From a virus, in IMG/VR virus record IMGVR_UViG_3300036770_004060, positions 1,120-65,119 of that record: DNA of 64,000 nt; one strand, written 5' to 3'. Numbering within the stretch: position 1 is the first letter of the stretch; every line of letters begins with the position of its first letter. Below the pieces are notes generated by a model. It had not been told where the DNA came from. It did no database searches and saw nothing but the letters and a program-made list of their open reading frames with translations. Shown here piece after piece: positions 40,450-45,182 of the stretch. The translations under genes and the position numbers were made by a program.

Positions 40450-40543
40450 ACCGTGGAAAATATAGAAATAATAGAGCCTAAACTAAAATATATGTGGTGT
40501 ATTTTAGAACATCTCACGAAAGTTGTAATATAAATAATAAAGC

Positions 40544-40714
40544 ATGAATAATAAAACGAATCAATCAATACAGTTTGACAAAGATAAATGGGATTATTTG
40601 TATTCTATTTACGGAAAAAATCTTCGTGAGCGTATTAAGAATTTAGTTTACGATGGATTTAAAAAAGACTTAGAGAAATTAGAAAATAATATTAATTATC
40701 ATGAAAACAAGTAA
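40544..40714 (+). CDS. possible ribbon-helix-helix DNA-binding protein (56 aa, not in ORF track)
   Basis: QSIQFDKDKWDYLYSIYGKNLRERIKNLV strand-helix-helix pattern. Confidence 0.4.
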   Translation: MNNKTNQSIQFDKDKWDYLYSIYGKNLRERIKNLVYDGFKKDLEKLENNINYHENK

Positions 40715-40874
40715 TTATATAGCTATATCTTCAAAAGATGACTATTGGATTTGTCTAAGCAAGCCTTGTGAAAAGAAAAATGCGCTTCTTTTTAGAGATT
40801 GTTTGTCAAGAGATGAATTTTTTCACATAAAAACAGTAAAGCAGGTAAAAAATCATAAAAAAGTCATTTATTAA
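40701..40874 (+). CDS. small hypothetical protein (57 aa, not in ORF track)
   Basis: MKTSNYIAISSKDDYWICLSKP...; overlaps the previous stop. Confidence 0.45.
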   Translation: MKTSNYIAISSKDDYWICLSKPCEKKNALLFRDCLSRDEFFHIKTVKQVKNHKKVIY

Positions 40875-40883
40875 TTTTTAAAC

Positions 40884-41090
40884 ATGAAAATAGATAAAGA
40901 ACTTTCTGAAATTGTTAAAAACGATAATAAATTCAGAAAAATAATGAGAGAAGAAATGGCTTTTAGCTGGACTTTAAATTTAAGAAACAACTCTAGCATA
41001 ACACATTTGTATTATCCCAATAAATTTGAAGACGAGTTCATAAAATGCGACATTATTAACAGTGAATTTGAACTTCAAGAAATAAATTAA
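40884..41090 (+). CDS. hypothetical protein (68 aa)
   Basis: ATG ORF. Confidence 0.55.
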   Translation: MKIDKELSEIVKNDNKFRKIMREEMAFSWTLNLRNNSSITHLYYPNKFEDEFIKCDIINSEFELQEIN

Positions 41091-41248
41091 AACTATGAAA
41101 ATTAAAGAAATTATTAGACAAAATCGTAGGACATCAAGAAAAATATGTTATTTGTAGGACAAGAAACGAGAGAATATATTTAATAACCGCACGAAGCCAA
41201 GCATGTTTTATATTGTGTGTTGTGCGTAGTGCTTTAATAATCAAAACA

Positions 41249-41536
41249 ATGACAAAATCAGAATTTAAACAAAAGTATTTTACCAATAATTTTTATTGGG
41301 TTGATGAAAAAAACTACGAAAAACTTCAACAAATAGGGATTGAAGTTGGTTGCCTTTGCCATACTGGCGATGCTTCAATTATAAAATGGCACGAAGGTTT
41401 TAAAAACTTGGGATTTAGAACCTATGAGAAAAATAATAATATAACAATGTTTCAAAAAGAGCCTTTCTTGCTACATACCGAAAAAGCAACTGATTATGAT
41501 GAAATGATTTGGGCTTATTCGGAGTATTGCCAATAA
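41249..41536 (+). CDS. hypothetical protein
   Basis: ATG 41249 (MTKSEFKQK) preferred; stop codon sits in the TAAC start of repeat R1. Confidence 0.6.
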   Translation: MTKSEFKQKYFTNNFYWVDEKNYEKLQQIGIEVGCLCHTGDASIIKWHEGFKNLGFRTYEKNNNITMFQKEPFLLHTEKATDYDEMIWAYSEYCQ

Positions 41537-41576
41537 CTAATATATATGCGTAACAAAACAATTTAGTAACTTAAAA
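41534..41576 (+). repeat. intergenic hairpin repeat R1 (TAACTAATATATATGCGTAACAAAACAATTTAGTAACTTAAAA)
   Basis: Homologous copies at 42830, 43429 (partial), 45142 and 40481 (variant). Confidence 0.8.
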
Positions 41577-41584
41577 AAAATAAT

Positions 41585-41788
41585 ATGTGGTGTATAGAAG
41601 CAAAGGCAAAAATTGATATTCTTTTAGGGGTAAATGAACAGAAAGATTTTTTTGTAGTAAAAAGTGGCGATACCATTACTGTAACCAAAGGCAGAAATGA
41701 AAAGTATGCTTTGTGGCATCATACTGGAATATGGGACCTACCAAAAGAATATGTCGGTGAAACTTTAAGGGTAATTTCTAACTCGTAG
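41585..41788 (+). CDS. hypothetical protein (67 aa)
   Basis: ATG ORF after R1. Confidence 0.55.
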   Translation: MWCIEAKAKIDILLGVNEQKDFFVVKSGDTITVTKGRNEKYALWHHTGIWDLPKEYVGETLRVISNS

Positions 41789-41792
41789 TTGT

Positions 41793-42749: not shown

Positions 42750-42829
42750 ATGTGCGGTGGCAAAAAAAAGAAAAGAAAAAGAATGATACGACAAATGCTC
42801 AATTGGAAACGAAATGTAGCACTTGCTTA

Positions 42830-42871
42830 TAACTAAAATATATGCGTAAAAAAAGATTTAGTAAATTAAAA
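42830..42871 (+). repeat. intergenic hairpin repeat R2
   Basis: TAACTAAAATATATGCGTAAAAAAAGATTTAGTAAATTAAAA, preceded by GCACTTGCTTA. Confidence 0.8.
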
Positions 42872-42879
42872 GAAAAACT

Positions 42880-43263
42880 ATGATGATAATATACAAAGTA
42901 AACGAAACATTCTACACTAACTACGACCAAGCCTACTTAAATGCCGAAAAGTTAGGTGTAAAAGTAGAAGATGTGTACGTGGTAGAAAGTGAAGAACCCG
43001 AAGTAGAAATACACGGAGATACACTTAAAGTATCATTCGATAATGGCGATAAGTTTGAATTGGAAATAGAATTTGAAGATGTACTTGAAGATTGTTCAGA
43101 CGACCCAGAGGATGCTAGAACTCTTATTTGTAAAGAAATTGAACAAATAGACTTTATTTTTGAACCTTATAAGCACACTTTAGAGCTAAATAAGTCTAAA
43201 ATCACGGATGAATTGAAAAGAGAAATTGAATATTATGCTGAAAGAATTAAAGATAAATTTTGA
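42880..43263 (+). CDS. acidic hypothetical protein (127 aa)
   Basis: ATG ORF after R2. Confidence 0.6.
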   Translation: MMIIYKVNETFYTNYDQAYLNAEKLGVKVEDVYVVESEEPEVEIHGDTLKVSFDNGDKFELEIEFEDVLEDCSDDPEDARTLICKEIEQIDFIFEPYKHTLELNKSKITDELKREIEYYAERIKDKF

Positions 43264-43428
43264 AAATTAATAATTAAAATAAAAATCAATATGGAAAACA
43301 AATCAACATTTAAGAAGATACTCGGCATTTCTCTTTATGTCTTCTTACCAGCAGTATTTTTAAGGTTGTTTAATATCTCTGTTATTGTGAACTGAATTAG
43401 AGTTTTTAGAAGCACAAAAAGTGGTGAA

Positions 43429-43467
43429 AAAATATAGAGCACAACAAAAAGATTTAGTAACTTAAAA
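43429..43467 (+). repeat. partial intergenic repeat R4
   Basis: AAAATATAGAGCACAACAAAAAGATTTAGTAACTTAAAA retains the 3' two-thirds of the repeat. Confidence 0.7.
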
Positions 43468-43543
43468 ATAAAAAAAATGAGTTTAAATGTTTATTTAACA
43501 ATAAAAAGGTATTTAAGATAGGAATATTAAAAATATAATAAAC

Positions 43544-44926
43544 ATGATTACAAGAAATGATTTAATCGAAATGGGTTACAAACCCAATAAATTGTTCAAA
43601 GATGCTATTGAACATATTAACACTAATGCATTAATTGGCGATGCTATAAAGCAATATATGGATAGCATACAACCCATCCACATTGAGCCACACAATGAAC
43701 ACATCACTTTTTACGAAAACATTAGGGCTGAAAACGAAGATGAAAAAAGTAATGTTGAAATGGTAATTGATACCATGAAACAAATTATGGTAACACCAAC
43801 CGTAGTAAAAGGATGTGTAATGCCAGATGCTTGTCCAACTGGTGAAATGCAAATACCTGTTGGTGGTGTTGTAGTTGTTAAAAATGCAATACATCCATCT
43901 TGGCACTCGGCAGATATCTGTTGCTCCGTTATGATGACAAACTTTGGCAATATTGAACCGAAAACTATTTTGGATGCAGCACATTCAATTACTCATTTTG
44001 GCGGTGGTGGAAGGAACGAATACTCTGAATTACCAAAAGAGTTTGAAGAAAAACTTTTAGCAAATGAATACTTGAAAACTGAAAGAAGTATGAACTTTGC
44101 TAAAAATCACTTGGCAACGCAGGGAGATGGAAACCATTTTTTATTCGTTGGAATTTCAAAAAATACAGGCGAAACAATGATGGTAACTCATCATGGAAGC
44201 AGGGGGCTTGGTGCAAACCTTTACAAAAAAGGGATGGATTTGTCGGAATGTTTCAGAAAGGAGTTAAGCCCAAAAACACATCCTAAAAACGCATGGTTGC
44301 CATTTGAAACCGTTGAAGGTAAAACATATTGGGAAGCGTTGCAACTTGTAAGAGAGTGGACAAAGTTGAATCATACAACCATTCATAATGCAACTGCCGA
44401 AAAATTAGAAGCAGCCATATTGAACAGATTTTGGAACGAACATAACTTTGTATTCAAAGACGGTGATTTGTTTTACCACGCAAAAGGAGCAACACCACTT
44501 GATGATAGGTTTGTGCCTGATAGCCAAAATGGATTGCGTTTAATTCCGTTGAATATGAGCCAACCCGTATTAATTGTAAAAGGGAAGACTACTGAAAATA
44601 ATTTAGGATTTGCACCACATGGAGCAGGAAGAAATATAAGCAGAGGACAGCACAAAAGAGGCAAGGCACACCAAACTATTGAAGATGTATTTGCAGAAGA
44701 AACTAAAGGGTTGGATGTTCGATTTTTCTCAAACAACATTGATATTTCAGAATTACCGAGTGCTTACAAAAACGCTGAAATGGTAAAAAGACAAATGGCA
44801 GAATTTGGACTTGGTGAAATTGTAGATGAGATTATGCCTTATGGCTGTATAATGGCTGGTGATTGGAAAATAGATGCATCATGGGGAAAGAAGAAAGAAG
44901 CTAACAAGGATAATGTAACCTCTTAA
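43544..44926 (+). CDS. rtcB: RtcB family RNA 2',3'-cyclic phosphate/5'-OH ligase
   Basis: [58 protein letters not shown] all intact. Confidence 0.95.
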
Positions 44927-44937
44927 TTTTTAAAACA

Positions 44938-45144
44938 ATGAGTAAATTAAAAGAACTAAAATTAGAATTAAAAGACTTGCACAAACATAGAGTTGAAGAA
45001 AAAGTTTTGTTTGCAAGATGCGGTGTAACTGGAAAAGAGATGAGATTAACATTTTATGGAGGCATTCAGGTTTGGCAAAATGAAAAACTGATTCGTGAAT
45101 TTGTGCAAGAGTTTCAAGCTGTAGAGTTTTTTAATGGCTTATAA
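44938..45144 (+). CDS. hypothetical protein (68 aa)
   Basis: Stop codon embedded in GGCTTATAAC at the start of R3. Confidence 0.55.
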   Translation: MSKLKELKLELKDLHKHRVEEKVLFARCGVTGKEMRLTFYGGIQVWQNEKLIREFVQEFQAVEFFNGL

Positions 45145-45182
45145 CTAAATATATACGCAACAAAACGATTTAGTAATTAAAA
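45142..45182 (+). repeat. intergenic hairpin repeat R3
   Basis: TAACTAAATATATACGCAACAAAACGATTTAGTAATTAAAA. Confidence 0.8.

Follow-up and report, generated by a model that had tools for sequence, protein, structure and literature searches.

Introduction

Repeated junction cassettes are one of the few routes proposed by which lytic phages gain and reshuffle accessory and counter-defense genes without wrecking their operons. Descriptions of such cassettes so far come mainly from T4-like phages of Proteobacteria and cyanobacteria, in which host promoters and terminators form the core of the cassette. The promoter-early stem-loop (PeSL) cassettes of T4-like phages pair a strong host-type promoter with a terminator in the form of a stable, G/C-rich stem-loop (Arbiol et al. 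2010, PMC2839356; Comeau et al. 2014, PMC4122927). Here we describe four copies of a single spacer of ~50 bases, designated R1-R4 (collectively R), that lie between early genes of a phage genome (IMG/VR record IMGVR_UViG_3300036770_004060, a complete record of 67,768 bp with terminal repeats). The window, i.e. the whole stretch of 64,000 nucleotides that was analyzed, comprises bases 1120-65119 of this record, and all coordinates refer to it unless indicated otherwise. The original prediction had regarded the repeats as attC-like sites of an integron-like array, whereas the analysis below indicates that they are most likely phage-specific gene-expression signals rather than gene-swapping sites. 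A Bacteroidota version of a junction cassette with neither promoter nor terminator would point to a translation-level or phage-factor-dependent solution in a phylum with ribosomes that do not use Shine-Dalgarno sequences. The practical gain is limited: an integron claim is removed and a small testable element is defined, from four copies in one orphan genome.

Several described systems share individual features with such an element. The attC sites of integrons are bounded by R'' (RYYYAAC) on the left and R' (GTTRRRY) on the right, span 57-141 nt and fold, as the bottom strand, into a stable imperfect hairpin with extrahelical bases. N4-type early promoters consist of a stable stem of 5-7 bp with a 3-nt loop and are read by a giant virion RNA polymerase. 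In Bacteroidota, the -7 element of primary-sigma promoters, TAnnTTTG, lies 4-5 nt before the start, and the mean leader in Flavobacterium johnsoniae is 33 nt; for initiation without a Shine-Dalgarno sequence in the same organism, A at -3, -6 and -12 are positive determinants, and low secondary structure raises initiation (PMC6847099).

Anatomy of the Repeat Family

Direct reading and a repeat finder revealed four copies of one spacer between early genes, all on the coding strand and all within 3.7 kb (Table 1). The original prediction had placed this family at 41534, 42830 and 45142, with a partial copy near 43429; a profile and a covariance model bore this out, and the partial copy was found to begin at 43427 and to lack just the first 5-6 bases, which form the left arm. 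When all 67,768 bp were searched, the profile built from the four copies matched only those four (nhmmer E 1e-9 to 1e-13; next E 0.03). Similarly, the covariance model returned 50-60 bits for the four copies and no fifth copy in the window, and an 18-mer core gave four forward matches and no reverse match (control 0/1).

The boundaries of the copies coincide closely with those of the adjoining open reading frames (ORFs). The upstream ORF ends with the first TAA of the repeat in R1 (41534-36) and R3 (45142-44), as had been noted previously, and in R2 a 28-codon ORF (42750-42836) stops at the second TAA (42834-36). An invariant 9-mer is present near the end of each copy, and the distance from its end to the ATG is 15, 15, 15 and 16 nt. 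Outside this 9-mer, the copies are 69-77% identical. In R2 and R3, and less so in R1, similarity continues a few bases into the upstream coding sequence, and the upstream ORFs therefore enter the module in different frames. Stop codons are found in all three frames of the module, and R1-R3 additionally carry a TAG-TAA pair in frame with the ATG, five codons ahead of it. The 3' end of the module is a start region rich in A, and each of the four copies has A at -3, -6 and -12. A generic junction sequence found ahead of other genes of this phage (repeat families D4 and D6) is similar to the right end of R.

Inspection of R1 and R2 also reveals an upstream ATG in each, which opens a mini-ORF of 6 codons (41542-41566) and 13 codons (42838-42883), respectively; the TGA stop of the latter overlaps the downstream ATG (ATGA). 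Neither R3 nor R4 has an upstream ATG, and this is therefore not a conserved feature.

Folding and Comparison with attC Sites

Predicted single-stranded DNA folds of R1-R4 had energies of 0 to -2.8 kcal/mol on the top and bottom strands (z-scores +1.55 to -0.88), no better than those of shuffled sequences. The RNA folds, at -0.5 to -2.5 kcal/mol, were as unstructured as shuffles or more so. The imperfect inverted repeats on which the attC interpretation was based are present in R1-R3 as 5-7 A/T-rich pairs enclosing a loop of 17-22 nt, but they are thermodynamically meaningless, and the pairing is lost in R4. Covariation in the arms, the lack of which had been named beforehand as one half of the refuting condition, was not found: no compensatory change was detected in six arm pairs, the right arm is invariant, and the left-arm difference in R4 just loses pairing. 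An Rfam search of 38000-47000 yielded nothing but one chance-level match to a small nucleolar RNA (E 0.38).

The sequence of the ends is also at variance with attC sites. The left ends, CAATAAC in R1 and TTATAAC in R2 and R3, fit RYYYAAC at the AAC only, and at the right end GTAA is followed by a variable base, with GTT absent. The core of R, at ~36 nt, is far below the length range of attC sites. A search of the complete 67.8-kb genome for Phage_integrase (PF00589) was negative at E <= 1, while the controls matched in 14 of 14 genomes; this search covers the phage genome, and a host-encoded enzyme remains conceivable. The sole recombination protein recognized was a single-strand annealing protein of the ERF family (Table 1).

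Promoters and the Early Transcription Unit

A pattern scan for the canonical Bacteroidota -7 box identified one ahead of the first early gene (38844), which is probably the promoter of the operon holding R1-R4, and a next intergenic one that marks the end of the R-containing transcription unit (Table 1). Between 38791 and 46267, the -7 box scan and a terminator scan revealed no intergenic canonical -7 box and no convincing terminator; R1-R4 therefore lie inside one long early transcription unit. A sigma-70 promoter scan is not applicable to Bacteroidota. A regular-expression search for the -7 box TAnnTTTG (as TAHHTTTG) found it at 38791, 46267, 50818, 50848 and elsewhere, but in none of the four copies. 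The closest partial match was in R1, which retains five of the six fixed positions; R2, R3 and R4 retain only 3-4 of 6, as is common by chance at 30% GC.

Intergenic repeats with a clear promoter function have been described in the crAss-like Cellulophaga phage phi14:2, which has four extended middle promoters (bioRxiv 10.1101/2020.03.07.982082). Like R, these are a few long, conserved intergenic repeats that precede genes belonging to one temporal class in a Flavobacteriia phage. In contrast to R, they carry the TTG / TAnnTTTG elements, as does the other four-copy family of the phage studied here. On the basis of the -7 box scan and this comparison, a host-type promoter was rejected for R. 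The other family occupies window positions 21056-21113, 33141-33231 and 50801-50867, and genome positions 67077-67155, outside the window. It is an extended, highly conserved form of the canonical Bacteroidota promoter, with TTTG at -33, a conserved 19-nt spacer and TATATTTG at -7. Its members are probably host-polymerase promoters that belong to a single temporal class and have an operator in common. Similar extended canonical promoters are present in 3-5 copies in helicase-related phages.

A promoter of the N4 type was also considered. R1-R4 are unfolded, and among the elements compared the hairpin at 40481 (R0; see below) alone shows a stem with a 3-nt loop, but at a single site. An ORF on the minus strand at 846-9665 encodes a protein of virion size (2939 aa) that has no Pfam, PHROG or PDB match, no polymerase signature and no DFDxD motif. 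A language-model look-alike search provided weak leads only, to LPD3/LPD38 "polyvalent protein" domains, and the product could be a multi-domain protein that is injected, as opposed to a virion RNA polymerase. No RNA polymerase was recognized in the phage, no sigma region-2 domain was found in the domain search, and no regulators were recognized among the twenty early ORFs, almost all of which are ORFans.

Table 1. Positions of the R copies and of associated features in the window
Feature	Position	Strand	Remarks
R1, full copy	41534-41584	+	From stop of ORF 41249-41536 to last base ahead of ATG of ORF 41585-41788; 59.6 bits; RNA fold -0.9 kcal/mol, z +0.64
R2, full copy	42830-42879	+	Followed by ATG of acidic 127-aa ORFan 42880-43263; 55.8 bits; RNA fold -1.0 kcal/mol, z +0.22
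R4, lacks first 5-6 bases (left arm)	43427-43476	+	16 nt, then mini-ORF 43477-43521; 50.5 bits; RNA fold -0.5 kcal/mol, z +0.52
R3, full copy	45142-45191	+	From stop of ORF 44938-45144 to ATG of ORF 45192-45464; 60.5 bits; RNA fold -2.5 kcal/mol, z -1.19
R0, not a member of the R family	40481-40507	+	11-pair hairpin, 3-nt loop; -7.5 kcal/mol, z -2.75
Canonical Bacteroidota -7 box	38791-38798	+	Ahead of first early gene (38844); pattern scan
Next intergenic canonical -7 box	46267-46274	+	Marks end of R-containing transcription unit; pattern scan
ERF-family single-strand annealing protein	51177-51815	+	PF04404, 42.6 bits, above cut-off

Distribution of R and Relatives of the Phage

Searches of viral, metagenome and genome collections with the exact core pattern gave single chance matches only and no multi-copy match to R. 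One locus with two copies (L318) was tried as a homologue and rejected, being an unrelated longer repeat. When 160 related loci and 5 complete records of related phages were searched with the profile and the covariance model, a single borderline junction was returned. This is a stop-to-ATG spacer in a 37-kb helicase-related phage (L135:13095-13155) that is R-like over ~45 nt (27 bits; E 0.18 for 1 Mb and 0.006 for its own genome alone), and it could be a distant homologue or a chance match. Antisense arms or reverse copies of R were found nowhere in these searches. Judged by its sequence, R appears to be unrelated to anything in the viral, metagenome or genome collections searched.

No close relatives of the phage itself were present in any collection searched. 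The nearest isolates, phi38:1, Calle and Panino, are ~29% identical in the helicase, and a search with the portal protein gave no isolate matches, consistent with an orphan in these collections. Relatives by helicase number hundreds, helicase proteins of 45-67% identity being among them, and have otherwise almost nothing in common with this phage; they share the helicase and a few replication genes only, at <=69% amino-acid identity, and none shares the early genes. The G+C content of the window is ~30%. The RtcB and methyltransferase genes are closest to those of Tenacibaculum, Cellulophaga and Flavobacterium phages, and the phage promoters fit the Bacteroidota TTG / TAnnTTTG pattern; because of these similarities and this promoter pattern, the host is predicted to be of the Flavobacteriia type.

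A Gene-junction Module as the Favored Interpretation

We tentatively favor an interpretation in which R1-R4 constitute a portable gene-junction module of ~50 bases that is read in the sense direction and operates on the polycistronic early mRNA. The original prediction had mentioned, as a fallback, a repeated element acting in translation initiation or at the level of the RNA, and this is the kind of explanation that the evidence favors, if with limited confidence. Host polymerase would transcribe the long early operon from the canonical promoter at 38791, and the module occupies the entire gap between successive early genes, from stop codon to ATG. Incoming ribosomes would be stopped in any frame because stop codons are present in all three, and a landing region that is rich in A, free of structure and constant in its distance to the ATG would allow the next gene to be translated independently of its neighbor. 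The genes served in this manner would be the small ORF leading to the methyltransferase, the acidic ORFan, the mini-ORF ahead of RtcB and a 90-aa ORFan. The invariant 9-mer and the adjoining A-rich block would probably be contacted by an RNA-binding factor, either ribosomal or encoded by the phage. The copies may have arisen by duplication or capture as accessory genes were added and, as direct repeats of 40-50 bp, could offer places at which ERF or homologous recombination deletes or swaps the flanked genes.

A gene-junction module is supported by the occurrence of four same-strand, stop-to-ATG copies with near-constant spacing from the 9-mer to the ATG, and by the likeness of the right end to the generic junction sequence of this phage. 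The A residues at -3, -6 and -12 and the low structure of R are features reported as favorable in F. johnsoniae (PMC6847099). The start regions of Bacteroidia that lack Shine-Dalgarno sequences thus resemble the 3' part of R, which is likewise unstructured and A-rich, but they are not conserved 35-nt sequences, and the R-specific 5' part has no described counterpart among them (Baez et al. 2019, PMC6847099). The position of the copies inside one transcription unit, together with the absence of a recognized RNA polymerase or sigma region-2 domain, is also consistent with a module of this type. Canonical promoters of its own, among them the separate conserved four-copy family, are available to the phage, which therefore has no obvious need for another promoter class.

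Several considerations weigh against this interpretation. Action at the level of the RNA is something we infer from the anatomy of R. The fixed spacing and conserved blocks could stem from recent duplication rather than selection, and with four copies in one genome conservation is inseparable from common descent. Many genes of the same operon start well without the module, which is therefore not required for initiation in general. R1 and R2 contain an upstream ATG, and Bacteroidia are reported to avoid further AUGs close to start sites (PMC6847099). Finally, a phage-specific promoter would predict the same orientation and placement.

Alternative Explanations

The last point leads to an alternative that is almost as likely as the gene-junction module and explains orientation and placement equally well. 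The copies may be phage-specific promoters or operators, either recognized by host polymerase that is redirected by an early phage protein or acting as weak, activator-dependent promoters. The central AT-rich box would then be the -7-like element, and genes of the counter-defense type would each obtain their own start and a leader of ~32 nt. Repeats that are intergenic, multi-copy and uniformly oriented ahead of early or middle phage genes are usually promoters, the middle promoters of phi14:2 being an example (bioRxiv 10.1101/2020.03.07.982082). In R1, a start 4-5 nt past the box would give a 32-nt leader, close to the F. johnsoniae mean (PMC6847099), the near-invariant -7 positions are largely kept, and the invariant 9-mer suggests contact with a protein. 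Nevertheless, TAnnTTTG is near-invariant in host promoters, is present in the promoters of the phage itself and is missing from the copies; the matches in R2, R3 and R4 are at chance level, the middle promoters of phi14:2 are of the canonical type and unlike R, and the searches for sigma-like or polymerase-like proteins that might serve as the redirecting factor were negative. Taken together, a promoter of this kind is possible. ERF-driven homology swapping at the copies is also possible, given that ERF is encoded and that the copies are direct repeats. In its strongest form, this would make R a set of passive linker duplicates, serving as PeSL-like homology patches for ERF or host recombination of accessory genes and otherwise being ordinary A-rich spacers. 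The copies bracket exactly those genes that look horizontally acquired (RtcB and the methyltransferase), and R0, which has the left end only, and R4, which has lost the left arm, resemble breakage scars inside the element. PeSL cassettes also run from stop to ATG in regions rich in ORFans, and recombine into mini-circles (PMC2839356). R shares with them the multi-copy occurrence, the single orientation, the setting in an ORFan-rich early (hyperplastic) region with accessory genes, copies similar enough to act as recombination homology, and the same proposed linker role. The differences are that no copy of R has a host primary-sigma promoter or a stable stem-loop, the terminator scan being empty at the copies, and that R is present in four copies within its short stretch rather than in dozens; moreover, recombination has been shown for PeSLs and is proposed for R. 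Since the two defining parts, host promoter and stable stem-loop, are both missing, R was not filed as a PeSL. A purely passive linker is rather unlikely: the invariant 9-mer and near-constant spacing amid lower overall identity suggest some selection on the sequence, freely recombining direct repeats would tend to delete the intervening genes, and none of the collections searched contained a relative close enough for a breakpoint to be seen.

These explanations are partly compatible with one another. They could be combined in junction cassettes that have neither promoter nor structure, in which an mRNA module would insulate and restart translation in a Shine-Dalgarno-less host and at the same time provide homology through which ERF swaps counter-defense genes, namely the methyltransferase, RtcB and the acidic ORFan, within a single operon. 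Such an arrangement would have an integron-like economy without integrase or attC folding, and we consider it less probable still than passive linkers. The 8/9 inverted-repeat match between the ends of R1-R3, and the fact that upstream ORFs overlap the element at their 3' end, are reminiscent of a miniature inverted-repeat transposable element (MITE) that has terminal inverted repeats of 9 bp and has multiplied in the early region. A MITE-like origin is nonetheless improbable in view of the single orientation, the fixed distance to the ATG and the lack of a consistent target-site duplication. No transposase or integrase was recognized among the genes scanned, no copy was present in the 160 related phage loci, and three collection-wide pattern scans gave no multi-copy match. 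It is more doubtful again, to the point of being barely credible, that the copies are integron-type attC sites, or other sites for a tyrosine recombinase acting in trans, that bound mobile gene cassettes. The likeness is superficial and consists of a start at or near the stop codon with ...AAC, short inverted ends and the separation of small gene groups. Against it stand the unfolded state of R1-R4 on either strand, the lack of compensatory changes, the ends and length that misfit attC, the empty Rfam search and the lack of a phage-encoded integrase domain, and the structured, integrase-dependent interpretation is firmly excluded.

Genes beside the Copies

Methyltransferases and RtcB are accessory gene types often tied to counter-defense, and those of this operon are likely counter-defense genes. 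R1 is followed by an ORF encoding 67 aa (41585-41788) and then by a DNA methyltransferase of the N6/N4 type (41793-42749). The interior of the methyltransferase gene (41865-42658) is ~76% identical at the DNA level to Flavobacterium siphophages (Lillamyvirus hemulen/lillamy), which points to a fairly recent exchange; no R-like sequence was found in the flanks of the related methyltransferase in those siphophages. The 127-aa ORFan that follows R2 is very rich in Asp and Glu and had no homologue in IMG/VR. This composition, and a position between the methyltransferase and RtcB, would suit an anti-restriction protein that mimics DNA.

R4 precedes the mini-ORF of 14 codons, after which comes RtcB (43544-44926), as if RtcB had landed in a gene once served by R4 and left the short stub. 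RtcB is present in at least 80 very different phage contigs (20-500 kb; loci L196-L275) with none of the neighbor ORFs of this window beside it, and therefore moves as a single gene. The 90-aa ORFan is encoded directly after R3.

The Element at 40481 and Other Small Motifs

R0 had been described as a variant of the repeat with perfect arms. It is a true hairpin, and its left end shares an exact 14-mer with R2 before diverging, but neither the R profile nor the covariance model matched it. It is the sole element of the five that folds (3 of 200 shuffles were equally good), and two G-U pairs of the hairpin are present in the sense RNA only. The motif GTTGTGYG, previously noted ahead of two genes, is indeed present at 41219 and 41788; an 8-mer seen twice is no more than expected by chance.

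Head-to-tail arrays of heptamers (ACTAATG-like units) are present at 19628-19660, 34337-34370, 36831-36856 and 38036-38064, with the minus strand as sense. They sit at or immediately ahead of the ATGs of late genes, and the 7-nt period yields TAA and ATG in all frames. The ACTAA core also forms the left arm of R, but across the genome it is no more frequent than expected.

Neither of two candidate small RNAs near 19.8 kb pairs with R, and R was accordingly rejected as a target of trans-acting RNA. The stretch 19746-19790 is the body of a promoter-plus-terminator unit without an ORF, a candidate small RNA. Its best trans pairing is with 44931-44990, at the start of ORF 44938-45144, at -23 kcal/mol as compared with a genome-wide mean of -8.1 (sd 3.5).

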